Source: a virus (lineage: Duplodnaviria > Caudoviricetes). From it: a DNA stretch of 55,101 nucleotides. Made by a program: the position numbers and the translations under genes. Positions 8,766 through 54,771 of the stretch are shown one piece after another. Position 1 is the stretch's first letter; every line of letters starts with the position of its first letter. The stretch is taken from positions 1 through 55,101 of IMG/VR virus record IMGVR_UViG_3300029448_000053. One strand, written 5' to 3'. The notes under the pieces were generated by a model, which ran no database searches, had not been told where the DNA came from, and worked only from the letters and a program-made list of their open reading frames with translations.

Positions 8766-10181
8766 TCATATTCCTCCATCATCACTTGGGGCTTCGGATT
8801 CTTCGGGCGGCTTGTTTTCATTTTCACGAGGCAACTCTCCTACATTAGTATCGGAGGTCGGCGCGTTGTATCTACCTTTCCCAATACTGGCCTTTTCAGC
8901 AGGTAGACTTAATTCAAATCGAGCCTCATTTAAAGTAGTAATTCCAGACTCAAATGCCATAGTTGTTCGGCGGGTTTGCTCGAATGGCGATTCCTCATCC
9001 ATTGGTTCAAACATGACCTTTGGTAAGTCCGACTTAATATGGGCAATACCAAGCAGTTCTAAGTGCTTTGAAAAGAGAGCATTCATAGATTGAGCGAGAA
9101 TAGATTGTAGACGGCGAATTGCTTGGACCGACCATTGACTCGCATTGTATGTAGCGGCAAAAGTAGAACCACGTTCCTGTCCCATAGAAACTCTTGGGAC
9201 ATGGAGAACTGATGAGATGTCAGCATTGACTGAATCTAAAAAGCCGGAGTTATCGGGCACTGTATTCTTGAGGTCAACAAACTCCATGTTCACATAGTGA
9301 GGGAGGATAGGCACTTGGTCGGAGCGGAGGCCGTCAAGTAGACTGCCTACTGAATCCATAACATAGTTAAGGCGAGCCTCGGCTTCGTCGGGGTCATTGA
9401 TATTCTCAACTGCTTCGGGGCCAATAGTAATGTATTGTTTAGTGAGTGAGTCTTCGAGAGCAATGCGGTTATTCATACTGTTGTATTTTGCACGGATGGC
9501 TTGTTTGAGAGCGGTAAAGCGAGATGCTCCCCATACGCCATAGGTCCATCGACCCAACCGGTCTCTAAACCAGTTGGAGCGGTAATCAATACGGATGTGT
9601 AGGATTTCCTTTGCTGGGTATGATTGAGTGTCCCTCGCTTGTTCTCGCAACAAATACTTCTCCGCTTTCATAATAGCGTTTTCTTTATCGGTCTGTGTAG
9701 AGCCGGTTCGACTATCCATAATTGTTATTTGCGCGATAGGCAGGGATTGTAATTCAGTAACACCGACTCCGGTTTTACCGACATACTTTGAGATGTCGTT
9801 GCCGTAGACCATGAGGTTTCGCATACCGTTAATGAGTAGGTCATCAAAGTCAAGTGTCTCTTCTACCAATGTTTTGATAGCGTTTCGTATAGCGGCATTT
9901 TTACCGCCGATAACTTGATACTTGTTTGCTGTGAGGCTGATAGTTCGGACTGCCCCATTAAGTTCGGGGTCGTAATTTAGCATGTCGTCGTATAGGTCGA
10001 ACTCATTTGTATGGTCGAAAGAGCCTCGCAGTCCCTCGGTATTCTTTACAATTTCATCAATACCAGCGGCCATCACTGTAAAGGGACTATCCCCCTTACG
10101 ACTCGCAGTAGTATATACTGGGACTTTAGTCTGTTGCTCTGCCGAAACAGTCCGAGAAGAAAATGGATTCCACCATGCCAT
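8766..10181 (-). CDS. Portal protein
   Basis: 471 aa downstream of TerL; LMVYGN, EILHIR, ISSVLHVP, GITTLNEARFEL motifs. Confidence 0.85.
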   Translation of the reverse strand: MAWWNPFSSRTVSAEQQTKVPVYTTASRKGDSPFTVMAAGIDEIVKNTEGLRGSFDHTNEFDLYDDMLNYDPELNGAVRTISLTANKYQVIGGKNAAIRNAIKTLVEETLDFDDLLINGMRNLMVYGNDISKYVGKTGVGVTELQSLPIAQITIMDSRTGSTQTDKENAIMKAEKYLLREQARDTQSYPAKEILHIRIDYRSNWFRDRLGRWTYGVWGASRFTALKQAIRAKYNSMNNRIALEDSLTKQYITIGPEAVENINDPDEAEARLNYVMDSVGSLLDGLRSDQVPILPHYVNMEFVDLKNTVPDNSGFLDSVNADISSVLHVPRVSMGQERGSTFAATYNASQWSVQAIRRLQSILAQSMNALFSKHLELLGIAHIKSDLPKVMFEPMDEESPFEQTRRTTMAFESGITTLNEARFELSLPAEKASIGKGRYNAPTSDTNVGELPRENENKPPEESEAPSDDGGI

Positions 10182-10373: not shown

Positions 10374-11891
10374 TTACGCTCCAAAGCGCACATATTTTCC
10401 ACCGGAACTTCGATTCCGGCTTGGTTTCGTAGGTTTTTTGCCTTTCGACCACCCACCCATGCTTGTCGTTTTAGTTGCCATAGGCATAAAGTCGGAACGC
10501 TTTGGTTTGAATTGGTCTATTGCGTGCGCAAAAGCCATAACTGTATCGTTATGTTTGCCCACATCTATAATCTCACCATTTTTCCATACGTGGTTTTCGA
10601 GTTCGTCAAGAAGTATGCCAATTTTTTTCCGCATATCGGCGGTAGCATACGGGAAAACGATAAGTTCTCGCTCAAACCATACCCTTAACCGGTTCATTAG
10701 CCCCTGTTTAAGTCCTTTATTCGACACTTTAGATGGTCTATAATCAACCATGCCTCCTTTTTGCTCTATGATTGTTTGATACAGTCTTTGAAAACCTACA
10801 TCCTCAGCGGCCACTGCCGCCTTAAAGTGTTTAGCCCATTCGATTATAATATCAGCCTGTCTATCCGGCGCAAAATCATTACGCCTCCACATATCAACAA
10901 AGTGGACATAGCCGTCAGCATCCTGTCGCAACGATATTAAAACGGAGTAGTCTTTACCAATACCATGAGAAGGGTCGAAGCCGAGGATGAAGACGGAACT
11001 ATTGTCGAATTGACTATCGAATCCTCCGTCGGCACTTATGTCTATGTTTTTTCGGATGAGGTGCCTATTGAATACTTGGGCATCATCATCAACGACCTTA
11101 CACAGATACTCTTGAGAGAAGGCGAGGTCGTCATCCATGCTGATTTTTTGTTCCAAGAGAAAAGCGGTGGGTCGGAACTTGGGCCAAAGTGGTGTTAACT
11201 CTACTTCGGGATTAACTCGGTGCTCATCCCAATTGGGGAATGCCGACCATACACCACTTTTCCATACTTGTTTAGCCTTCTCGGATAACATCTCGGTTTG
11301 ATAAAGGTCAGTGTGGGACATTGGCGTGCCGACACAGAACAGTGATGTTTCGGGGTCGAGCATTGGAGTAACTACTTTCTTGAACCACTCTCGCACCGAG
11401 TCCATAGTCATATCCCCCATTTCAGCGAGGACATCATCAAGTGCTACTACGGCAGGGTGCTCTCCACGGATAGCGGAACCTACACCGGTTGCTTGAATCC
11501 AAGCACCGTTGGTAAATTGTATTTTTTGCTTGTTTGATTTACGTTCATTGAGATACTTTCGTAGTTCGGGGTGTCGGCGCATATCAGTCTTAATCTCCTC
11601 AAGACGGTTTGTTGCTTGGCGAATAGATGCGGAAAATAACCACACCTCCATAGGGTTGCCGTTGCGTTCTTCAAACAAACACATGTGAAGTAATTTAACA
11701 CGTAGTGTTGCTGATTTGCTGTGTGAGCGGGGAGCGATAATACAGACACGATGAACTGCCGCGCCTTTACGGTCGCCGTATAATTCCATCCATTCGCCTA
11801 TGTGGTCGGCCCATTCGTATTCGGGGGATAACCATTCATAAAAGTGGCGGATGTCATACTTGGAGCGTTGAAAGTCAAAGTTGGTTATCAT
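10374..11891 (-). CDS. terL: Terminase large subunit
   Basis: Walker A APRSHSKS, Walker B VVALDD, coupling motif VGTP, nuclease LGFDP...DYS and HNDTVMAFA. Confidence 0.93.
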   Translation of the reverse strand: MITNFDFQRSKYDIRHFYEWLSPEYEWADHIGEWMELYGDRKGAAVHRVCIIAPRSHSKSATLRVKLLHMCLFEERNGNPMEVWLFSASIRQATNRLEEIKTDMRRHPELRKYLNERKSNKQKIQFTNGAWIQATGVGSAIRGEHPAVVALDDVLAEMGDMTMDSVREWFKKVVTPMLDPETSLFCVGTPMSHTDLYQTEMLSEKAKQVWKSGVWSAFPNWDEHRVNPEVELTPLWPKFRPTAFLLEQKISMDDDLAFSQEYLCKVVDDDAQVFNRHLIRKNIDISADGGFDSQFDNSSVFILGFDPSHGIGKDYSVLISLRQDADGYVHFVDMWRRNDFAPDRQADIIIEWAKHFKAAVAAEDVGFQRLYQTIIEQKGGMVDYRPSKVSNKGLKQGLMNRLRVWFERELIVFPYATADMRKKIGILLDELENHVWKNGEIIDVGKHNDTVMAFAHAIDQFKPKRSDFMPMATKTTSMGGWSKGKKPTKPSRNRSSGGKYVRFGA

Positions 11892-14930: not shown

Positions 14931-15113
14931 TCACTCAAAAGAGGGTAGGTTTCCGTTCCGGTCTTGTTGTCGGTCAAGGTAGACCTGCAACACATCGTCA
15001 AAGAGAGAGGGGCGTTCCATCATGGACATATCCCTTACCCGTGTGTCTTCCAACAAGCAAATAATGTTCCTCAACCTGCGTATTTCATTCATCAGTTCTT
15101 CGTTTGTTTTCAT
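14931..15113 (-). CDS. Hypothetical small protein (MKTNEELMNE...)
   Basis: GGAGG SD; TTTATATAT box near 15200-15208 on the minus strand. Confidence 0.55.
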   Translation of the reverse strand: MKTNEELMNEIRRLRNIICLLEDTRVRDMSMMERPSLFDDVLQVYLDRQQDRNGNLPSFE

Positions 15114-15347
15114 GTTTTTTCCTCCATTGTTTTTACGGTTCGCCTGTTTTCTGTTCTTGTCCACTGACTTTCCCGTATGTGCATACTAACACCTATATCA
15201 TATATAAACGGTTCCCGAATAATGCTCATACCTATTGTTGAGTGGATGGGGGGTTGCCCCACGCACGGCCCCGCCGCCGGTATAAGACTGTTAATAGAAA
15301 ACGCGCTTGGGGAGAGATACTCGGCGTTTAGCCTCTGTAATATACTA

Positions 15348-15420
15348 TATAGTCTTAGGAAGGAACCGTGAACGGGAGGGGGCTTGGGAGAGAGATTTTG
15401 ACTTCTCCAAAAGTCCAAAC
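15348..15420 (+). repeat. Tripartite ~72-bp element, copy B
   Basis: TATAGTCTTA-N29-GGAGAGAGATTTT...AAAAGTCCAAAC. Confidence 0.7.
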
Positions 15421-15784
15421 TTTTCATGCTGTCGGCTCATGGTCTGTCGAATGTGTCCGAGGTTATGAACCCTTTGTTTTCTTGCTTTTTTGGCTGGAAT
15501 TGAACTTTTTTCTGTTTTTTTTTCTGTCTGTTTTTTTCTGTTTTTCTTTCGGTCTTGAATCGTTGCCCCTGATGTCCTAAACGGGGCACTGCGAGACCGG
15601 TGGCCCCTCCGCTCTCAAATGTGCCTTTTTTGGGCTGTTTTGGGCTTTGTCCGGCCAATGACAGGCCGACGATTTAGGGCACCCTAAATCTCTTTTTTTG
15701 TCTTCTATTCGATGGACTGCGAGCCTGTTTTTTGCAGAATGCCACTTGGATAAGTTGATATACTTGAGCGGGAATCGGTAATTG

Positions 15785-16925
15785 CTTCTCCAACCGGAGG
15801 GAGCCGAAGTGAATAATTTGCCCCACACTCATTCCCGATAGTTTAGGGATTCAATGAACGGGGAGTTTCGGAGGGTCATTAAAGTGGCCGTCGAAGAACC
15901 AAGAACAATACAGCGAACACATCATGTTCCCTTCAAAAACTGAAAACATCCAGAAAAAGGAGGGATTGCGTAGCCGTGCACTGCCTCTCTTGAGAGGTGG
16001 GGTAACGGACTCTTGAAGCCGGCTTTTGAGACACCCTCTCAAATATATTCAACGGCATGGGCGTGAGTCATAGGACAAACACGAACATTTGATAGACGGG
16101 TCGGGAACACCTTGACCCTCATGGGAGTTGCCTTCGACAGAAGAGGCACTGAAAGCATGAATTAGTGGATGGTTGAGAAGCATCACTTCTCGACAGGGGC
16201 GACCCGACTCCATCCAATAATCACCGCTTACAACTCTATGACAGTGGACTTAAAACCCCACTTGAGAGCATATATGACAAACAAGACCGCAATGAACTTA
16301 TGGGAACATATATCCGAAAGGAGGCTGTTTAAAGGTGTGCGCATCAGATTCGGGTGTTTCCCGACTGATGACACTATTTAGTAGCGAATTATTGAATTAC
16401 CGATGTAACCGGCGACGGGTGCATCAAACCATTAGATTTTGAGTCTCCACAGGCGGAGGTTCGCATATACCCACCGTGGTTATGCCTTACAGGAACTTTA
16501 TTTTTCAAGACGGCGTGGCTATGCGGTAGCAATACCGGCGGAGTGTCTATGATGCGAGGGAGGCGTGAACTTTTTTGAATAGGTGAGTCGGTCCGGTTGT
16601 ATAGCCGGCTCACTGAATTATCACGGCTCGGATTCATGCTCCAACATACACTACAATACACGGACATGATGAAAGGCAATCCTCCCGAATAATCTTCTAA
16701 TCCTGTGAAAAACGGCGCTTGAGGTGCTCCGCCAATGACGGCCCCAATCACAGTCCTCGCCCACATACGGGCAGAGCGTGGGATTATCTACGGCCTAAAC
16801 CGGACCACGCAGTATGAAAATGGAGCGGAGACTCTACCGCTACCGAACTCTCTCCCTCAAAGAAAGAGAGTGCTTGAAAGAGAGCAAAGAAAAGAGAGGC
16901 GCGACTTGTAGGCAAAGAGTCAAAA
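15785..16925 (+). ncRNA. Candidate large structured non-coding RNA (~1.1 kb), family unassigned
   Basis: No credible ORF; TTGATATA box at 15755-15762; many local hairpins with G-U pairs and GNRA loops plus nested long-range helices; ends approximate. Confidence 0.65.
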
Positions 16926-16944
16926 AAAACGGAGGAAAAAACAA

Positions 16945-19644
16945 ATGTATGAAAATGCAATGAACACAGATAGTGGTTTAGGCATGATTTTTGCTATGCT
17001 ATGGGTATTCCTACTCATGGGCGCAGTAATGACGGCCTTCATCACCCAACGATTAGAAGAAACAATGCGAATGCGTGTTGGACTCGAAATAGAAGTTCTA
17101 CGGAACGACCATACCGAGAATGCACCCAACCACTCAATTGCGACTTGGCTTGACATGAAAGCGGCCGCCGAAGGCGACGCCTACAATCAAGCGTATGAAA
17201 AGACACGAAAGAAGCGTGTCAGCATGTATCGAAAGACTCGTGCGAAGCGGCGAGAGGCAATACATAAAGCCCTGCCCCATTCATACTACAATAGACGTTT
17301 TAGAGTTCGTGATGAGTCGTGGTCTCAAGGCCGCACTGCACCACATACCAAAGTCATACCCGATGGTTCACTATCGAGTGGTGGCTTTGAAGTCGTGTCG
17401 CACCCTTTAACAGATGGTGCACATCATGGTTGGATTGCCACACTTGGTAGACTACTACGACACATAACTCGTATTGACCGCTCATGTGGGCTTCATGTCC
17501 ACATTGGCCTAAGAGACCCCGACGCTAATTTTGGCGACGGCGGTCAACTTACAATGACCGATGCAAAATCAATTGCTGGTCGAGTTGCTTGGGCCTATGC
17601 TTACTTCACCGATGCTTTCAACCAGATTGTATCACCGAGTAGACACTCCGGTCAATACTGCCAACGGTCCTACCATATGCTTCGGACTCACCCGAACCCA
17701 ACAAACCACACTACACGCCGACGAGACACTCATGTGATGGATAACCCATCACAGGAAGCCTACATACTTGATGGGACACATGAATACGAACAACTGTATG
17801 ACAATGACCCAAGTGAAGGATATGTAATCTACCGAGTTGAAAAACTTGAAGGGCAGACCTTGTGGCATAAAATGTATGACAACGCACGGAGTCATGGTCG
17901 TTATTACCATCTCAATGTGTGCAGTCTCCTTGACAGGCCCTTTGGCACTGTCGAGTTCCGTCAACATCAAGGAACATCAAACCCAGTGAAAATGAGTAAC
18001 TGGGTCGACTTATGCTATGAGTTTGTATTGCGGTGCGCCAGTGTCGAAAACTTTAATGGAATACAGGCATACTCACAGGACCTCAAAGGACTGTGGGCAT
18101 TCCTTGACTATGCGGAGGATGACCCAGTGGTTGACTATTATACCAAGCGTGCATATGTTCTAAATGGAGGCAACTTCATACGGGACTGCGACAATTGCGG
18201 TAGTAATACCTGTGTGCATTACGAGTGTGTAACAAAACTTGACAGCGACATTTCCGATGACGCCAAAAGATTCTTTGCCAACTCTCGTGATTGGTCTTGT
18301 TATGACTGCGGTAGTAGTAATTACCTTAGTGAGATTAACACTGAATATGAAACTGCTCACTGTGAATACTGCGACAATGAAGTGTCAATACACTGTTCCG
18401 GTGCAATTGCATCACTCGCCCTCGGCCTCTTTGTAGCCGCACCACTCGTGGGTGCAGTTGCACTGGTAGTCGGATGCGGTATAGGTGCAATCCATGTTGG
18501 TGCCAAGAAGTTCCAATCAAAGAAGAACTTCAAGCGTTTGTTCAATGACCTCGCAGTGCGTGGTGGACAAGCGTCTGGTTTTGCGTGGCAAAAGTCCAAA
18601 GGTGGCGAGACATCCGAACTGTGGTATATCAAATCGCCCACTCCCTCGACTCATCTCAAGAAGCGTGTCGATGACCTTGTAAAAGGCGACACTATTTGGA
18701 TAATGGGACATACTCGATTTGCCACACACGGTGAAAACAATTCCGACAATGCACACCCGCACTGGAGTCCAGACGGACACATAACACTTATTCACAACGG
18801 TGTTGTAGGTAATTATGACAAGGTGTGGAAAACCCTCGGCCTCAAACCGACGGGTCCAGTAGACAGCCAAGCAGTTGCCGCCGCTCTCGAAGTTGGTGGT
18901 ATCGAAAAGGTTGTTGAACTGTGCGTGGGCAATATGTCATTGATTTGGTCGGACAACCGAGACCCGAAAGGGACACTCAAGTTCTGGACAAACGGTGGCA
19001 ACCCACTATGTGCTGGTAGACTACATCATCCAAACAAAGGTCCACTCGTCATAGCATCGACATTACCAATCCTCAAGCAGTCTCAAAAGGGCTTGAAAAC
19101 ACACTGGTCGTGCACTATCGGAACTGAATACACAGTTCACCCCGATGGTTCAATCGAAAAGCGTGATATTGAAGGAAGTGAGGATAGTGTCGGTGTTGGC
19201 ATGTATAACTGGCGAACATATGCGAGCCTATACGGTGGTAAGTCAAAGTCCAACAAGACTCGGACTATTACAGTCAACGCACCAACGGGTAAAGCCGATG
19301 GTGTGGCTGATAATTGCACACTACCCGATGTATCGGACAGTTACGAATACGATGACATGGTGCTCAACGATGTTCTAAATGACGTGTGGGCACAGATGAG
19401 CATAGATGGTTGGATTCCAATTGACGAATACCACGGTTACGACACACAGACACATGTTGGCGTGCGGCCCGATGGAACATCCTACAAACTACCAAATTAC
19501 TACGGTGGTAAGGCTATGGACCCAGTTATGGACACAGACCAAATGGTAATGGTATTGCGTGGCGAGTTTGACCCACGCACTACGACCAAAGGATTCAATG
19601 AAGTAGAATCCTACTGGAATGACGTGCAGGAATACTACAACTAA
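16945..19644 (+). CDS. Fusion: TM + amidoligase (COOH-NH2 ligase) + Zn ribbons + TM + class II glutamine amidotransferase
   Basis: VGLEIEV, DGSL...GFEVVS, SCGLHVHIG, RYYHLN, TVEFRQHQGT (amidoligase); CGIG, RGGQASG, GHTRFATHG, NAHPH, HNGVVGNY, VDSQ (GATase II); GGAGG SD. Confidence 0.85.
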   Translation: MYENAMNTDSGLGMIFAMLWVFLLMGAVMTAFITQRLEETMRMRVGLEIEVLRNDHTENAPNHSIATWLDMKAAAEGDAYNQAYEKTRKKRVSMYRKTRAKRREAIHKALPHSYYNRRFRVRDESWSQGRTAPHTKVIPDGSLSSGGFEVVSHPLTDGAHHGWIATLGRLLRHITRIDRSCGLHVHIGLRDPDANFGDGGQLTMTDAKSIAGRVAWAYAYFTDAFNQIVSPSRHSGQYCQRSYHMLRTHPNPTNHTTRRRDTHVMDNPSQEAYILDGTHEYEQLYDNDPSEGYVIYRVEKLEGQTLWHKMYDNARSHGRYYHLNVCSLLDRPFGTVEFRQHQGTSNPVKMSNWVDLCYEFVLRCASVENFNGIQAYSQDLKGLWAFLDYAEDDPVVDYYTKRAYVLNGGNFIRDCDNCGSNTCVHYECVTKLDSDISDDAKRFFANSRDWSCYDCGSSNYLSEINTEYETAHCEYCDNEVSIHCSGAIASLALGLFVAAPLVGAVALVVGCGIGAIHVGAKKFQSKKNFKRLFNDLAVRGGQASGFAWQKSKGGETSELWYIKSPTPSTHLKKRVDDLVKGDTIWIMGHTRFATHGENNSDNAHPHWSPDGHITLIHNGVVGNYDKVWKTLGLKPTGPVDSQAVAAALEVGGIEKVVELCVGNMSLIWSDNRDPKGTLKFWTNGGNPLCAGRLHHPNKGPLVIASTLPILKQSQKGLKTHWSCTIGTEYTVHPDGSIEKRDIEGSEDSVGVGMYNWRTYASLYGGKSKSNKTRTITVNAPTGKADGVADNCTLPDVSDSYEYDDMVLNDVLNDVWAQMSIDGWIPIDEYHGYDTQTHVGVRPDGTSYKLPNYYGGKAMDPVMDTDQMVMVLRGEFDPRTTTKGFNEVESYWNDVQEYYN

Positions 19645-48033: not shown

Positions 48034-51000
48034 TTACTCCGAATAACTGAACGAGTTCGATTGCGATTTACCTGCTACTGAGCGGTTATCGGTAGCAATC
48101 TGTATGTTATGTAACTCGACCGAGGCGTGAGATGCGTTGTCATCACCTTGACCTGCGTTCCGCTCTACTGTTACCTTGATAGTATTGTTTGATACATTAG
48201 CACCGAGCACACTACCACTAAACAAAACGACATTACCACGTTCAATTTGTTCTACCGTTACAGTGTTGGTGTGTGTTGCACCAGTCTCTACACATTCAAC
48301 GCTCACCAGTAGAACTGCACTGCCGGAGGCGGCACCCATACTGGCTCTACCAAATACTCTAATGCTGTTCGATTGAGCGTTGGGTGGGATTCGAGCAGTA
48401 GCAGTGAAGGATGTAGGGGGCGAGACCCAATCTCCGGCACCAGCAAAGACCATACCGTCTTCACCCATGATTGCATCTCCCGATGTAGGGGAGATAAACG
48501 AGTCAATGCCGGATATACCGTTGCCATCTCTCGGAGCCGCCGCCGGTTTTGTTTGACCGAGGACTCCGAATGAACCACCGGTAACACTGTCATTGTTAAA
48601 GTCCATAGTTCCCTTGACACGATTAAGGGTAGTATTGCCTAATGCCGATGACGATAGGGTATGCACTCCGGTTATTGAAGTGCTTAGTCCGTCGGGTCGA
48701 GAGATACGATTTGGATTTGTAATTGGATTGAGTTGAGAACTGCTTGTTTGAGCAGGGCCACCGTCGCCCCAACCACCCCAGTCCTGCCATCCTCCGCCTT
48801 GAGGATTACCTGCGTTATCGCCACCTCGACCACCAGTAGTGCTACCTCCCGATGGAGGAGTCTGTGGTGCTACACTATCACCGCCGCCACCAGTATTACC
48901 TTGACCGGATGACTGAACGCCGCCTCGTGCTACCTTTGGTAGAATATATGAGGTGAAGTTCTTTGCCGCTCTCGACACATCTCTTTCAAGTCCTATTGAT
49001 AGACTCTCACTGTTTCGGCCGTCAATAGACCAATTGATATTACGAATACTTAATTTTTCACTACTCAATCCCATTTGAGCGTCAGTGTATGTCAACGTAG
49101 TTGCTGGCACGAAGTTCCAATCATCGACAATGTGGAGGCGAGGAGCATACCATTCAGCATTCTTGTTCCAGTAATCAGCCTGTCCGAACTTACGAACACC
49201 GAGAGGGAAAATACTATCGGTATTAAATCCAGCAGTGTATGTAACTCCAGCCCAATTATGTGCATTTAGATGAGTGTTGCTACCGCCGCAACGGTTGCGT
49301 AGGAGAGAGGTCAAGTAATCGTAGTTCACTGAAATAACCATTTTTTCATTACCTACTTGGTCGCTCCAATAAGTAGAAGGAATGCCTATCTCATAGAAAC
49401 CATTCGATGAAACGGTAATTGAACTACTGCTTCTTAAGGTGCCGTCAAATCCACCAGTGTTTAAGACGGCCCAATCGTAATCCAATAAGTATATTCGGAA
49501 CAAAGCGAGGTTCGGGTCTTGAAATGCGCCCCATCTGTCGTCAATATCAATTGCTATTCTCAAGTGTCCGTCGGCATTATTCTTTGTTGGGATTCCGCCG
49601 GCTGGTGTTTTCATTGTAGTCTTTGGCATGCCTTGAGGAACATGGACTACCTGCATAGCGTAGGACAGTGAATTAGCACCATACCAATAATAATTTGCCG
49701 AGTATGCGAGAGTGCCCTGCTCGTCAGTATTACTTGGAGTAGCACCATCTCGACCATCAAGTGCATTTTGAATACCACTAAACAAGTTGCCACCCCAAAG
49801 AGAAGCCCAAGCCCATGCTTTATCATCAGTATAGGACCCTGCTAAAGTGCATGTTCGGGGGATTGTTCGAGATTGGTCGGCTACATATCCGTAGCGAGCG
49901 TTGTATAGCATGGTATCGTTGAGTCCGTTGAGAGTATGACTATCGCTGAATCGAATAATCTCGGCTGTAACTGCAAATGGTGCGGCCTTGTTCTTCTCAT
50001 ACTCTTGTTTCGCTACAATCAGTGCTTCATTTTTTGATTGCACCGAATCCACATGAATGATGTCCCAACGAGGGCGAGTTCCAAGCGTAGCCGCCGGATA
50101 ATCAACGAATGATGTTCCGCCGTTGTAGAATAGGCGAACATTGGAGATTTGCCCACCGGATTCGGTATTCAAGTTGGAGACTTTTAGGTTGGTAGTGTTA
50201 AACACGAAACCGTTGCCGTATGTAGGTCGGAATGACGGCTGTGAGTCTCGACCCATGAGCCAAGACATAACCGAGCGAGTTCCGTCAGTGTGTCCTATGC
50301 CACTACCGCTTTGAGTAGAAGAGAATATGTTGGCAATAGTAGTGTTGCGGCAATCATTAACGGAGCCGAATGTATCTACCGACCCTACCTTACGCCAATA
50401 ACCTGCATTGGCTGTCGCACTTTTACCTGCGGCAGTTACTCTAAAGTTATACGGACCACTCCCCCCAACATCGGAGACAACATATCTCGTCTTGTAGTTA
50501 TCAGCCGCGAGGCTTAGTTGAGAATTGTTGACAATTTCAACAATATCACCATTAGCGAGGTTTCCGTCGAGCCGCTCCCCTGCGATATTACCGAGAACTA
50601 TTACTGTTCCGTCGCCTTGAGTGTGGCTTGAGGTTGCGATAATCGAGTTTGTTCCACCAGTCGAAGCGTCGTTTTGAGTATTAGTCATGTTGCCCATCAC
50701 AGGAATAGATGCGAGAGAAGGTATTCCGTAGAGAGATGCTTGGGTCAACCAATTCTGTGTGAGTGAGTCGAGCCATGTAACACGGAACTTGTCGCTTTCA
50801 TTGAAGGTGAGGCTCGCTTCATTCTCAATGAAGCCGTCAACCTGCATCATCAAGCGCATAGGGAATACATTAGCGAGGCCGACATGCACTGTCGCATCCT
50901 CGTAAGCATTTGTTGCGTCTTCATCAATAGGGATGTCAATAAAGGTATGTGCTGAAAACGGCGAGCCTCCGTCTTGAACTAAATACTCAGCGTCATTGAT

Positions 51001-54000
51001 ACCAGTTCCATAACCAGCACCGTTCCACTCACCAACCGCAGTAGTTCCTTCTACTGCCACCCCTAAGTCAGCCATACAATCGACTATGTATGTTGCTCCG
51101 GCACCGATAATTGTTCCTGTTCCGCCGCTTGACATTGTAGTTGAAGGGTCAATTGCGAATCTAAGTTCCCAACCGGCAGTTGTAACAGTTCCGTTGTCAG
51201 CGGTAATAGTGTATGTGCCATCTACATTAGGAGTTGTATTTGAACTTGAAATTGTAATTTGCTGTCCTGCCCTAAAGTATTTGATAATATCACTACTACC
51301 CGTTATTTTGCATATTCCTTGACCGTAGGGCGCAATAGCCATGCCTGTAACTGCGGCAGGTTGACTCGTTGCGTTGAAGTGAAATATCTTCTCTTTGCTT
51401 TGACTGGTTATAGAACCTGCTACTGCTCCACTGGAGGGAAAGTTAATAATGTCGTCAGTCAATTGTAGCAACCTGTCTCCACTTTCAAAGCCGACAAGTA
51501 GAGTAGTGCTTCGGCTGTTAAAGTGCTTGTAATTACTATTCCAATTTGCTGAATCGGCACTGTCGAGATTGTAAGGCCCAGTAGGTGCCCTCTCCCAATA
51601 GTTGTCAATGAGTATAGGAAACCCTTCTGTCTCTACGAGGTAGTCGCCAATCTCCTTTCTACCACCGGATGTTTGAAATGTGCTACCTCCGTTTGATTCA
51701 GTGTTGAGATTGAAGAACTTAGATGTATCAACAAAGAGAAATGACCCCCCTTTACCCTCCCAGTTCTTGTATCGGTTATCGTCGGAACCAGTAAATGAGT
51801 CGGGTGTAAATGAGTCGGAGTTGACGGAGGACCAAGTGTTGCCTGTGATTGGGTCTTGGGTCGCATCCATTTGCCACAGGTCCACATCAGTTCCTATCGC
51901 CAAATCAACAAACTCTTGTCTTTCGGAATCATTTGAGACCGTAGAGTCAGCGAGGACCATAGATACTGCGTAGTTCTGTGAGTATGGTGCCATCAATCCG
52001 AAGTTCTTTTTACGGAATCCTAAGTCAGCATTAGCCGAGCCATCATTCCTCATGTCAGCCCACATAACCCAAACATGCTTGTAGTCATCAAGAAGTTCCC
52101 TTATTCTAACAGTAGAGCCGCTGTCGTGGTCTCTTTGAAAGAAGTTGGTCGCTGGCGCAACTGCCGTAGTGCCGAGCATCTGTAAAGTCCCACCCGTCGC
52201 TTCGGTTGCTATGACCTGCCCCACACCGAACATAGGCGCGGCGGCGACATCACTAAGGGCAGTTGGATTTGTAGTATAGACTAATCCTGTTAAGACTGTT
52301 TGCTTAGTCGTAATGTTTGTAAAGTGAAAAAGGTCGTATTTGTATGGAGAATGTCTCGCTCCTCTTGGCTTTAGAATAAGTCGGAGACACGGAACTCCGT
52401 TTCTTGTTACGAGAGAAGTATGGCTGGTGGATGCGGCAGTAGCGGGGTATGTGGTGGAGGTATCGGCATACATAGCCTGTGGTTTCCACTCTCCGTTTAG
52501 ATTGGCATTTGAGCAACCAGTGATTGTCATTGTTTGGTCGGTCATAGTGCTTGAGTTCCATGCTGATGCGGCGATATACACTACGGGGAACCATGTGTAG
52601 GGCTGATGAGTTCCATAGGTAGTGCTGAACCCATTAACAATCCAATCTATCGCCACTATTGCAGTAGAGGTAGTAGCGGTTGCACTGTTCACTACGCCGG
52701 AGTCAATTGTTCCGTCGGCATCAATGATTTCAATACTACCGCCACTTACTAAACCGCCGCAGTAACCTACCAAGTCAATTTGAGTATCGCCAACACTGAA
52801 TGCCGACGCGAGTGTAGTCTGCACCCCACCGCTACTATCTATGCGACCAAACATGTGTTTGAACCACTGAGAGTTCTTGAAATCCAACATCCATCGAGAC
52901 TGGAGTGCTCGATACTGCGCTGATGCCGTTGCTGTTCCGTCATCACACGCGTCATCCCAATTGGCATAGGGAGTATTGGGTCCAATGAGTGTGTCTTCGC
53001 CGCCATACATTTGAATAGGATGTGCTGAACGGTTTCGCATTCGAGAGTCTTTATGTGCGAGGAACACGCCGGACCCGTCATCTACTTCATTGAATCCGAG
53101 GGTAGCATTGGATGAAACCAAACGTGATGCTCCGAAGTAGTAGGTGTTGAGGTTGTTCTGTGCTTCGCTACGGTTATATGCAACGCTCGCTGTGCTGTCA
53201 GCATCTCCCGAATCACCAAGTTCCCATGTGGGGATTTGCTGGTCGAGTGATGAGAAGTAGTCCTGTGCACTTAACTTGATTGTCGGAGTGCGCTCTACTG
53301 CTCCCATAGAATAATTGAGAGAGTTGATTGCCCCTCGCCATAGTGGTCGGTCAATGTTATCTCGGAACATTAGGAGGGACCAATCAGCATATGATGAGGC
53401 ATTGAAGAACTCAATTAGGCTCAACTGTGCGTCATCATCAATCAATGTGAGATTTAGAGTAGACACAGCGTTCACAGAGGTGTTGTATGCCATAGAGACC
53501 GCTGGAGGCATCTCTAAGCCGCTTGGATAGTCGTTAAGGGGTCTTACCAGCCCCACACGGTCAATGAGCACAGCGGCCTTCTTAGAGCAACTATGAGCCT
53601 GTATCATCCAACCATACATGTCGGCGGCTGTGAAGTTGGTTCCGTCAGCCTTTGTAGTCATGGTTTGGTTTGTTACTACGGCAGTGCCGTTTTTGTAGAG
53701 AGTGTAGCGATTATTTGTATAGTCAATTACAAAGTCGTAGTCATCCCAAAGAGAAGCAACCGTAGGTGGACTGGCATATGATGTCGAGTCGGTTTCTTGG
53801 TATGCCACAGGAGTAATCTCTAATTCTATTGCGGCGCGTGAATATCCAGTATCACCGGATGCGGCACTGGTGAACGCAGTTCCCTCGCAACCAATACTCA
53901 ATTTGAATCGGGCGGCTGAGGTATCGACAGCACATGCGTGCATACGCATAGTAAATATGTCTCCGTCGCCTTTTGAGTTAAGGCTACCGTCGAATGAGAG

Positions 54001-54771
54001 AACTGGTGCGTAACTGGCCGAGGTCATGTAGACCTCGCTTACCAAGAATGGTTTGCCAGCGGGAGATTCAATAGGGTAAAGGTATGCCTTTGGGTTACTA
54101 TTGGTGTAGGCATTGTTAAACAAAACCTCTCCCGAATACACACCTGCGAGGTGAGTTCTTACGACGGTAGTTGGTGCTGATACACCAGTAGGTATTCCAG
54201 CGATAGCGTCGAGGGTGCTTGTTGAACCGCCGTCGTAGTCGGGAGTCTTTGAAGTTGCTCTACCGTAGGAACTGTCGTTGGTCCCGATAGCGGAGTAATA
54301 ACGGCTGGCTGTGTTGTAGCCGTATGAGAATAGGAGGTATGCGTCTTTGGCATCGGCGGCTTTGTATGCTTCTCCGAGGATGCCTGTTCCGCCGTCGAAT
54401 CGCTGGCGGTTCGCATTTGTTAATGAGTCGGGATATTGCAGTTGAGCAGTTCCCTCGTATGTTCCGGCGTTGCGTCGGTTTTGGTCGTATGCCAACCACT
54501 CGTTGATACCGCCGTTATGCTTGTATTGGTCGGCTGTGGCTGTGGCGGCATTGTTGAACCTGCCGCTGGCACCGTCGCCTCGCTCACACCATGCGTAGGT
54601 GTAGCGTGTGTTTAGATTGGCCCAGCCGTTGAGCGGGTTGCCGTGATGACTCTTTGCTGAGGACCATGTAGTTCCCTGTATGTTTAGGTCATCGGGGAGT
54701 GCACGAGCACCGATGAAGTCGTCGTAATAGCCAGCCATCCAAAATGTTAATCGTCTATCCACTGTTCGCAT
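48034..54771 (-). CDS. Very large tail/baseplate virion protein, 2245 aa
   Basis: T/S/G-rich, multiple beta domains, hub-like segment (PLWRGAINSL...IKLSAQDY), Gly-rich linker; follows the tape-measure-like ORF. Confidence 0.7.
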   Translation of the reverse strand: MRTVDRRLTFWMAGYYDDFIGARALPDDLNIQGTTWSSAKSHHGNPLNGWANLNTRYTYAWCERGDGASGRFNNAATATADQYKHNGGINEWLAYDQNRRNAGTYEGTAQLQYPDSLTNANRQRFDGGTGILGEAYKAADAKDAYLLFSYGYNTASRYYSAIGTNDSSYGRATSKTPDYDGGSTSTLDAIAGIPTGVSAPTTVVRTHLAGVYSGEVLFNNAYTNSNPKAYLYPIESPAGKPFLVSEVYMTSASYAPVLSFDGSLNSKGDGDIFTMRMHACAVDTSAARFKLSIGCEGTAFTSAASGDTGYSRAAIELEITPVAYQETDSTSYASPPTVASLWDDYDFVIDYTNNRYTLYKNGTAVVTNQTMTTKADGTNFTAADMYGWMIQAHSCSKKAAVLIDRVGLVRPLNDYPSGLEMPPAVSMAYNTSVNAVSTLNLTLIDDDAQLSLIEFFNASSYADWSLLMFRDNIDRPLWRGAINSLNYSMGAVERTPTIKLSAQDYFSSLDQQIPTWELGDSGDADSTASVAYNRSEAQNNLNTYYFGASRLVSSNATLGFNEVDDGSGVFLAHKDSRMRNRSAHPIQMYGGEDTLIGPNTPYANWDDACDDGTATASAQYRALQSRWMLDFKNSQWFKHMFGRIDSSGGVQTTLASAFSVGDTQIDLVGYCGGLVSGGSIEIIDADGTIDSGVVNSATATTSTAIVAIDWIVNGFSTTYGTHQPYTWFPVVYIAASAWNSSTMTDQTMTITGCSNANLNGEWKPQAMYADTSTTYPATAASTSHTSLVTRNGVPCLRLILKPRGARHSPYKYDLFHFTNITTKQTVLTGLVYTTNPTALSDVAAAPMFGVGQVIATEATGGTLQMLGTTAVAPATNFFQRDHDSGSTVRIRELLDDYKHVWVMWADMRNDGSANADLGFRKKNFGLMAPYSQNYAVSMVLADSTVSNDSERQEFVDLAIGTDVDLWQMDATQDPITGNTWSSVNSDSFTPDSFTGSDDNRYKNWEGKGGSFLFVDTSKFFNLNTESNGGSTFQTSGGRKEIGDYLVETEGFPILIDNYWERAPTGPYNLDSADSANWNSNYKHFNSRSTTLLVGFESGDRLLQLTDDIINFPSSGAVAGSITSQSKEKIFHFNATSQPAAVTGMAIAPYGQGICKITGSSDIIKYFRAGQQITISSSNTTPNVDGTYTITADNGTVTTAGWELRFAIDPSTTMSSGGTGTIIGAGATYIVDCMADLGVAVEGTTAVGEWNGAGYGTGINDAEYLVQDGGSPFSAHTFIDIPIDEDATNAYEDATVHVGLANVFPMRLMMQVDGFIENEASLTFNESDKFRVTWLDSLTQNWLTQASLYGIPSLASIPVMGNMTNTQNDASTGGTNSIIATSSHTQGDGTVIVLGNIAGERLDGNLANGDIVEIVNNSQLSLAADNYKTRYVVSDVGGSGPYNFRVTAAGKSATANAGYWRKVGSVDTFGSVNDCRNTTIANIFSSTQSGSGIGHTDGTRSVMSWLMGRDSQPSFRPTYGNGFVFNTTNLKVSNLNTESGGQISNVRLFYNGGTSFVDYPAATLGTRPRWDIIHVDSVQSKNEALIVAKQEYEKNKAAPFAVTAEIIRFSDSHTLNGLNDTMLYNARYGYVADQSRTIPRTCTLAGSYTDDKAWAWASLWGGNLFSGIQNALDGRDGATPSNTDEQGTLAYSANYYWYGANSLSYAMQVVHVPQGMPKTTMKTPAGGIPTKNNADGHLRIAIDIDDRWGAFQDPNLALFRIYLLDYDWAVLNTGGFDGTLRSSSSITVSSNGFYEIGIPSTYWSDQVGNEKMVISVNYDYLTSLLRNRCGGSNTHLNAHNWAGVTYTAGFNTDSIFPLGVRKFGQADYWNKNAEWYAPRLHIVDDWNFVPATTLTYTDAQMGLSSEKLSIRNINWSIDGRNSESLSIGLERDVSRAAKNFTSYILPKVARGGVQSSGQGNTGGGGDSVAPQTPPSGGSTTGGRGGDNAGNPQGGGWQDWGGWGDGGPAQTSSSQLNPITNPNRISRPDGLSTSITGVHTLSSSALGNTTLNRVKGTMDFNNDSVTGGSFGVLGQTKPAAAPRDGNGISGIDSFISPTSGDAIMGEDGMVFAGAGDWVSPPTSFTATARIPPNAQSNSIRVFGRASMGAASGSAVLLVSVECVETGATHTNTVTVEQIERGNVVLFSGSVLGANVSNNTIKVTVERNAGQGDDNASHASVELHNIQIATDNRSVAGKSQSNSFSYSE

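Follow-up and report, generated by a model that had tools for sequence, protein, structure and literature searches.

A conserved, modular candidate structured RNA of about 1.16 kb upstream of a viral amidoligase gene

Positions 15,784-16,944 of the virus genome IMGVR_UViG_3300029448_000053 very probably encode a genuine structured RNA. The window analysed here is this entire IMG/VR record (55,101 bases, completeness estimate 85%), and the element lies on its plus strand, directly upstream of a gene that encodes an amidoligase fused to a glutamine amidotransferase. An initial annotation of this DNA had offered two possibilities, a large viral non-coding RNA of a new class and a giant structured leader belonging to the amidoligase gene. 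The present analysis supports a new, conserved and structured plus-strand RNA, and its position favours the leader. The reading that we favour, with modest confidence, is a new modular multi-hairpin plus-strand RNA of about 1.16 kilobases (kb) that forms the leader of the amidoligase/glutamine amidotransferase message in tailed viruses of a small, uncultivated marine clade. That the element acts in cis as a leader has, taken by itself, perhaps slightly better than an even chance.

Relatives of the element were retrieved through the downstream gene. The amidoligase protein has 24 relatives in a large protein collection. When used as a query, an alignment of 21 sequences (A1; the window protein and 20 relatives) recovered 80 viral and 79 metagenome loci, while the single-protein query recovered none. 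The search for homologs suggested in the initial annotation was productive: nhmmer with window positions 15430-16944 detected full-length counterparts immediately before the gene in all relatives with an amidoligase of 48-58% identity, with E-values of, for example, 2.4e-132 (L084) and 7e-41 (L003). After de-duplication, 12 lineages were retained, namely the window, L084, L002, L088, L087, L097, L095, L004, L092, L003, L089, and L086. Their pairwise DNA identity is 41-89%, and the distance from promoter box to start codon ranges from 1,126 to 1,261 nucleotides (nt). The element adjoins the same amidoligase/glutamine amidotransferase gene, upstream and on the coding strand, in all 12 lineages, an association that is not independent of the retrieval of these loci through that gene. 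No close relative by DNA was found among cultured phages. In the comparison with cultured-phage proteins, the amidoligase protein was matched via its amidotransferase part alone, with coverage of 28% or less.

The gap upstream of the amidoligase gene is the widest between called genes in the window, which bears out its earlier description as the longest non-coding stretch of the genome. The 31 motif strings quoted in that description are all present at their coordinates (GCCGT at 15973). The label "ORF-free" holds in a narrower sense, since the minus strand has a 125-amino-acid (aa) open reading frame (ORF) that starts with ATG (16389-16766), and the plus strand has one of 70 aa (16169-16381). 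The longest open frames vary in strand, frame, and place across the 12 homologous sequences. Searches by tblastn with the window frames returned the same blocks of DNA from several frames and from both strands, indicating nucleotide conservation rather than protein conservation. No reading frame is conserved among the 12 lineages, and the hypothesis that 15,784-16,944 is coding was rejected.

The structure of the element was examined by cutting it into nine segments at conserved anchors and folding each lineage separately. In these independent folds, nine modules show the same shapes from differing sequences in the 12 lineages. The 5'-proximal hairpin P1 (15784-15804), for which both the separate folds and the positional cluster comprise 12/12 lineages, is built from at least six unrelated stem sequences. 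It is directly followed by CGAAG (15805-15809), which is kept in 10/12 lineages and reads CGAGG in L088 and CGTAG in L087. Hairpin positions were also counted, with loops of the separately folded RNAs placed on a sequence-only MAFFT alignment, scored as coincident within 7 columns, and compared with a circular-shift null. At 9 sites, hairpin loops coincide in 9 or more of the 12 lineages (null mean 0.05, maximum 1), and at 15 sites they do so in 7 or more (null mean 2.39, maximum 5). A structure-profile alignment gave an equal hairpin count; as such an alignment favours aligned hairpins, the count was repeated on the sequence-only alignment. The element is 1.13-1.26 kb long and has nine hairpins in at least 9 of 12 lineages. 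In these respects it is of the same kind as the large ornate RNAs, which are longer than about 400 nt and have many covariation-supported helices.

Most of the local hairpins listed in the initial annotation recur in the relatives with other sequences, namely those at 15981-16000, 16025-16043, and 16098-16118, the junction at 16166-16216, and the hairpin at 16342-16370. The hairpin at 15981-16000 is contained in a long hairpin, P4 (15972-16011), which was seen in the separate folds and has a positional cluster of 10/12. Upstream of it, P3 (15928-15934 paired with 15959-15965) encloses P3a (15940-15942 paired with 15951-15953), the loop of which lies around AAAACAUC. This nested hairpin formed in 10/12 separate folds (L003 and L089 were mis-cut), and the P3/P3a stack also appeared in a covariation scan. 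The hairpin TTTGAGA/TCTCAAA (16025-16043) has a cluster of 12/12, with stem sequences that differ in the alignment, and the hairpin GGGTCGGG/CTTGACCC (16098-16118) has a cluster of 11/12.

Covariation among homologs had been named as a check, and compensatory changes were indeed found in four modules on sequence-only alignments, far above both shuffled and slid controls. The three-way junction at 16160-16222 (A3) is formed by an outer helix (16161-16164/16218-16221), a closing helix (16167-16172/16210-16215), and two hairpins, one at 16174-16180/16186-16192 and one with a GNRA loop at 16196-16198/16203-16205. Of its alignment cells, 85.5% are paired, compared with 61.0% in shuffled and 34-47% in slid controls; 17 of 20 pairs are altered on both sides, and one helix has 7/7 such pairs at 100% pairing. 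The module at 16336-16428 (A5) contains P6 (16342-16370), a CATCAG/CTGATG stem with an inner hairpin at 16350-16354/16360-16364, and P7 (16409-16418), a 3-bp stem with a GNRA loop (GCGA). Here, pairing reaches 81.9% (shuffled 68.9%, slid 32-48%), with 7/16 pairs altered on both sides. The separate folds agree with the A5 pair counts for P6, and A5 pairs 104-113 and 106-111 of P7 covary. The module at 16818-16944 (A6) is 72.6% paired versus 58.5% when shuffled and 32-48% with slid partners, and 13 of 22 of its pairs are altered on both sides. It begins with hairpin H10 (16822-16844; helix 1), in which 4/7 pairs are altered on both sides and which formed in 12/12 separate folds. The hairpin CTCTCT/AGAGAG (16848-16870; helix 2) has 4/6 such pairs with only 65% of cells paired, because its register differs in group C. 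The last hairpin, H11 (16903-16921; helix 4), carries the conserved loop (T)AGGCAAA(G), ends 9 nt before the ribosome-binding site, and is 90% paired with 3/5 pairs altered on both sides. The fourth, module M, is a 76-nt three-way junction that is missing from the window; it is 95.5% paired (shuffled 85.5%), with 9 of 22 pairs altered on both sides. For all four modules, the pairing and the covariation score were reached by 0/500 shuffles, a control that related sequences may beat without structure, and slid-partner pairing was 32-62%.

GNRA loops were found in 22/22 cases and on the plus strand only, in the junction hairpin (11/11 lineages) and in the P7 hairpin (11/11 aligned lineages). RNAalifold on whole-length or segment MAFFT alignments of the 12 lineages gave few helices, because the variable stems are misaligned.

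Covariance model R1, which represents the junction, matched 21 loci (E 1.9e-19 to 9.3e-14), and model R2, which represents the 3' domain, recovered the out-of-sample locus L085 (1.3e-11). In a clade with an amidoligase of about 40% identity, the leader is about 950 nt long, shares the type of promoter box, opens with P1-CGAAG, and has an H11-like hairpin ahead of the start codon. In more distant clades, a hairpin followed by CGAAG occurs 310-680 nt upstream of the gene. The hairpin-CGAAG and the pre-start hairpin recur upstream of amidoligases that are 33-41% identical. A strict automatic rule (a hairpin, then CGARG) was matched upstream in 26 of 51 loci, at 0.47 per kb versus 0.14 per kb elsewhere (3.4x); some of these 26 matches are other hairpins, and the recurrence is treated as a lead.

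Comparison of closely related strains indicated that the element is modular. The flanks and the amidoligase protein of L082 are identical to those of the window, and L082 has module M (L082 45-120) inserted after 16,710, that is, between 16710 and 16711. The copy of module M in the clade of about 40% identity is nearly identical to the copies in L003, L089, L086, and L097. A search with module M returned only three viral contigs and one contig from a cellular genome. The presence of nearly the same module in viruses with such distant amidoligases points to horizontal exchange of an RNA module. A tRNA-like nature of module M was also considered and rejected, with no tRNA model matching L011 at E up to 10. 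A second variable segment lies at 16392-16531. In contigs from two runs, X1 (DNA) and X19 (an RNA library), about 90 letters that differ from those of the window stand between 16392 and 16519/16531, and conservation among the lineages is lowest at 16445-16580. We interpret 16392-16531 as a strain-level replacement of one domain. Together, the L082 insertion and this replacement indicate that whole structured modules are gained, lost, and exchanged.

The ends of the element relate it to the gene. The AT-rich box TTGATATA (15755-15762), which the initial annotation had placed ahead of the stretch, is present about 22-29 nt before P1, and the relatives have TTGATATA, TTTATATC, or TTTAAGG boxes aligned with it. 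Its (T/G)ATATA(C/G) motif is found again ahead of other window genes. We regard the box as a candidate promoter element, either archaeal TATA-like or, if the host is bacterial, an extended -10. A scan for a hairpin plus T-run detected no terminator-like site on the plus strand of 15,790-16,944, and no promoter-like site was found on the plus strand inside the element. Because no terminator was detected and H11 abuts the ribosome-binding site, the RNA is physically the leader of the gene unless it is processed. The leader reading is thus favoured by the AT-rich box before the first hairpin, the lack of a terminator, and the hairpin just before the ribosome-binding site. Metatranscriptome contigs from three runs of three studies cover 16102-16252, 16275-16392, and 16300-16715, and one of these runs also contains a piece of the amidoligase gene; these runs were found using this stretch and are weak evidence. 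The parts of the element that these contigs leave uncovered are given no weight.

Under the leader reading, transcription would most likely start about 25 nt after the AT-rich box. The transcript would open with P1 and CGAAG, run through at least nine conserved hairpins including the three-way junction, reach H11, and read into the gene without a terminator, so that element and gene would be co-transcribed. The element would then most likely control the stability or translation of the amidoligase message in cis, via a bound protein or a small ligand. Its peripheral modules are gained, lost, and swapped between strains.

Several observations weigh against this reading. The full-length family is small, comprising 12-13 lineages that are all metagenomic, and matches to R1 and R2 are confined to L086 and the closest clade, in which the amidoligase is 48-58% identical, with none in the 40% clade. 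Module M is optional between near-identical strains, and the RNA is therefore dispensable at least in part. The region shows no expression platform, with neither a terminator nor a helix hiding the ribosome-binding site, and thus offers no visible switch for control in cis. GGAGG lies in an A-rich, apparently open stretch after H11, and CUCC-type stretches complementary to it are present but show no covariation. The metatranscriptome contigs reveal no transcript start, end, or strand. Folding energy, proposed earlier as a test against shuffles, proved not to be distinctive. The element folds at -367.4 kcal/mol on the plus strand and -348.0 kcal/mol on the minus strand, with z-scores of -4.0 and -1.1 against 30 dinucleotide shuffles. 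Seven coding controls of equal length from the same genome gave -1.08, -2.35, +0.37, -3.25, +0.22, -0.91, and -4.20, two of them at or below -3.25. As coding controls match the z-score of the element, the shuffle test cannot carry the claim of a structured RNA. Module M with its flanks alone has a z-score of -0.94.

The evidence on strand and on long-range pairing is also mixed. The earlier argument for a plus-strand RNA had combined G-U pairs with GNRA loops. The loops uphold it, and the G-U pairs leave it undecided, with 46 G-U and 41 A-C over all cells; among fully paired columns, 8 need G-U on the plus strand (21 cells) and 6 fully pair only if read as the minus strand. These near-even counts probably arise from some stems being out of register in the sequence-only alignments. 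A plus-strand RNA is supported by the GNRA loops, the z-scores, the gene orientation, and the promoter box. Seven nested long-range pairings had also been put forward, and they are kept in the relatives no better than random region pairs. A blind scan for long-range stacks, based on covariation, identified 16012-16015 (5' arm) with 16282-16285 (3' arm) on the plus strand. Its columns are altered on both sides in 4/4 cases, and none has fewer than 10 of the 12 sequences paired. A control scan for impossible parallel stacks reached 3/4, and the duplex energies of this pairing are not significant for any single sequence. We regard it as a candidate long-range helix and as a lead only. As neither the earlier pairings nor this candidate establishes a long-range or tertiary contact, the region may consist of hairpins in a row and lack a single integrated fold.

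Other explanations of the element were weighed against the leader. It is rather unlikely that it is a stand-alone, trans-acting large non-coding RNA of the GOLLD, ROOL, or OLE kind, processed from the leader or ended at another type of terminator and serving during infection as a scaffold or as a particle that assembles itself. Co-expression with the amidoligase gene, and not regulation of it, would then account for the location of the element. A length of about 1.16 kb and the number of hairpins exceed the needs of a simple leader, and the strictly conserved GNRA loops could make tertiary contacts. The periphery of the element varies while the core hairpins stay, and in other large RNAs peripheral domains likewise vary around a constant core. 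Contigs from RNA libraries cover the element in 3/3 runs and the gene in 1/3, a weak indication given that the search was biased to the element. However, no terminator-like site lies ahead of the gene, the last conserved hairpin abuts the ribosome-binding site, and no closing long-range helices emerged. In addition, the element is always directly upstream of the amidoligase gene, in loci fetched via that gene.

Less probable still is a row of independent local elements, such as stabilising hairpins, protein-binding sites, and possibly several small RNAs, with no integrated fold. Against it, all 12 lineages share the order and spacing of at least nine hairpins across 1.1 kb, covariation is seen at 4/4 positions of one long-range stack, and the plus strand has no internal promoter-like or terminator-like sites. 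On the other hand, every well-supported helix is local, the claimed long-range pairs fail, and whole modules come and go between strains. Distant clades retain only the 5' hairpin-CGAAG, the pre-start hairpin, and module M, 310 to 1,140 nt upstream. A DNA-level element, in which the inverted repeats act in DNA as part of a replication origin, a packaging site, or a divergent-promoter control region, is very improbable. The location at a switch of gene orientation and AT skew would suit such an element, and the G-U versus A-C test is compatible with a strand-neutral reading. The T-runs, the repeated ACTGCGAG motif, and the palindrome of 15,480-15,760 would also fit, but these DNA-like features lie upstream of 15,784 and thus outside the element. 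Stems that stay paired despite sequence change in 12 lineages, GNRA loops in 22/22 cases on one strand only, and G-U pairs tolerated in columns that are otherwise fully paired (8 columns, 21 cells) all argue against it. No direct-repeat iterons were noticed in the region, in which no dedicated repeat search was made.

A second conserved non-coding element was observed at 15560-15700 of the window, just upstream of the candidate promoter of the large RNA, with a hairpin around 15583-15607. The motif ACTGCGAG occurs twice (15588-15595 and 15706-15713), and a palindrome at 15671-15690 followed by a T-run scores as a plus-strand terminator-like site. The block at 15569-15656 is the only part that a single-sequence nhmmer search also matches in the 40%-identity clade. 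This element may represent a small RNA or, alternatively, a group of operator sites. An AT-rich (T/G)ATATA(C/G) motif was also observed 20-60 nt before the start codons of the genes starting at 11891 (minus strand), 21486, 25127, 25958, 27646, 37089, and 38039. Two copies extend to GTTATATAGTGGCG.AGAC, and three copies are without the final T of a bacterial -10 box. From its recurrence, this motif is a candidate viral promoter.

The window carries tailed-virus genes, including those for the terminase large subunit (10374-11891) and the portal (8766-10181). Gene orientation switches at the gap that contains the element: the minus-strand genes end at or before 15427 and the plus-strand genes begin at 16945. 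The AT skew reverses sign at the same switch. The first plus-strand gene (16945-19644, 899 aa) encodes Amidoligase_2 fused to a class-II glutamine amidotransferase and is preceded by the GGAGG ribosome-binding site at 16931-16935, with its ATG at 16945-16947. In the fusion protein, the segment that links the amidoligase and amidotransferase halves comprises a cluster of invariant cysteines (C415 to C476) together with a hydrophobic stretch. The cysteine of the amidotransferase catalytic type, C511 (in an invariant CGIG), sits internally. Class-II amidotransferases require the catalytic cysteine at the N-terminus, and the internal position of C511 therefore suggests that the fusion is possibly self-cleaving.

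On the minus-strand side of the gap, a strongly conserved block (CTTGGGAGAGAGATTT, GCTCATGG, ATGAACCCTTTGTTTT) at 15345-15480 overlaps a 31-aa minus-strand ORF (15345-15440). A 105-aa ORF at 15110-15427 has a low-complexity, implausible translation and no family match. Given this implausible ORF, the non-coding gap may in fact exceed 1.5 kb. Elsewhere in the window, a Pfam search at E up to 0.01 left a 2,245-aa ORF on the minus strand (48034-54771) without a match.

The description of the genome as that of an archaeal virus was an inference and not an observation; the replication genes are indeed of archaeal type, and no direct link to an archaeal host was found. Pfam searches of the window identified DNA_pol_B (family B polymerase), ERCC4 with HhH, and an AAA+ protein that resembles RFC. 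Among solved structures, the clamp loader is closest to archaeal RFC small subunits (1iqp, 1.7e-31; 2chq, 2.3e-29), with T4 gp44 at about 2e-11. The XPF-like protein matches Hef and the entries 2bhn/2bgw ("XPF endonuclease"), which we take to be of archaeal origin. The best virus matches of the polymerase are Halorubrum tailed viruses, and the terminase matches include haloarchaeal viruses. A Poseidoniales virus has been reported to encode a metallophosphoesterase, an amidoligase, and a GATase, as the window does (PMC11706807, PMC13108676). The only cellular-genome record with module M is a 61,226-base contig (L164; contig C3 of G001), genome-sized and from a related virus, in a metagenome-assembled genome labelled Opitutales (bacteria). 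Cellular genomes gave no other hint of a host. Since the amidoligase occurs in only 1 of 201 Opitutales genomes, this contig is read as a binned viral contig, and its assignment is probably a binning artefact. Overall, an archaeal host is moderately probable.

Structured RNAs longer than about 500 nt, other than ribosomal, intronic, and RNase P RNAs, are rare, and each new large class (OLE, GOLLD, ROOL, HEARO, and raiA) opened new biology. To our knowledge, no such large RNA class is known from archaeal viruses. The element offers a delimited, conserved 1.16-kb target with clear domain boundaries and a fixed genetic partner, the amidoligase-glutamine amidotransferase fusion, the viral role of which is itself not known. 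The module-swap variants represent natural deletion and insertion experiments. Acting in cis, the RNA would far exceed in length every other structured leader associated with a single enzyme family; acting in trans, it would establish a further class of large RNAs, carried by abundant viruses of the ocean. A broader reading, which we consider doubtful, would make it the first large ornate RNA class from marine archaeal viruses, a kilobase sensor or ribonucleoprotein platform with exchangeable cassettes, module M among them, on the amidoligase/glutamine amidotransferase message. Were this true, it would be a giant modular riboswitch-like or self-assembling RNA with cassettes spreading horizontally among co-infecting viruses.

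In line with the absence of known-family signatures reported earlier, Rfam 15 at the gathering score gave no match in the whole window or in 13 related loci (121,264 bases), which covers GOLLD, ROOL, OLE, HEARO, group I and II intron, RNase P, rRNA, tRNA, tmRNA, and riboswitch families. Permissive Rfam searches returned six matches in window 15300-17100, all with E of 1 or more and under half the gathering score, and three matches in L011 3700-5050 with E of 2.5 or more. ARAGORN identified neither a tRNA nor a tmRNA in the window. Our literature search found no description of the element and no paper that links viral amidoligase genes with any RNA element. The k-turn, a protein-binding motif of archaeal RNAs, has a consensus of a helix, a 3-nt bulge, and tandem G.A pairs. 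A resemblance to it was noticed by eye, and is not used as evidence, in repeated helix-TTGA-helix-GATGA(C)-helix units in the 16,690-16,760 region of L088 and L087 and in CTTGAGG ... AATGAC at 16718-16740 of the window.

Like riboswitches and long leaders, the element lies between a candidate promoter and the ribosome-binding site of one gene, the product of which uses glutamine. It shares with riboswitches covarying conserved helices and a tie to one gene family across divergent clades. The glutamine riboswitch (glnA RNA) occurs in marine cyanobacteria, but neither a glnA nor another riboswitch model matched window 15300-17100 or L011 3700-5050 at E up to 10. The element is also 5-20 times longer than known aptamers and has no known ligand, and neither a terminator nor a sequestering helix for the ribosome-binding site was found.

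GOLLD and ROOL are large ornate RNAs that often occur in phages or prophages of bacteria, as outlined in a preprint (bioRxiv 10.1101/2024.12.08.627333). The present element differs from them in abutting a protein gene with no terminator between. Whereas GOLLD and ROOL are bacterial, it comes from marine viruses with archaeal-type replication genes, and the present analysis gave neither a multimer nor a global fold for it. As no Rfam 15 model matches the element in 14 loci, it has no homology to these RNAs, and the comparison with GOLLD and ROOL drawn in the initial annotation stands as a likeness in kind and not as family membership. In kind, the element resembles GOLLD and ROOL in being virus-borne and several hundred nucleotides or more in length, with many hairpins, no known function, and a variable periphery.

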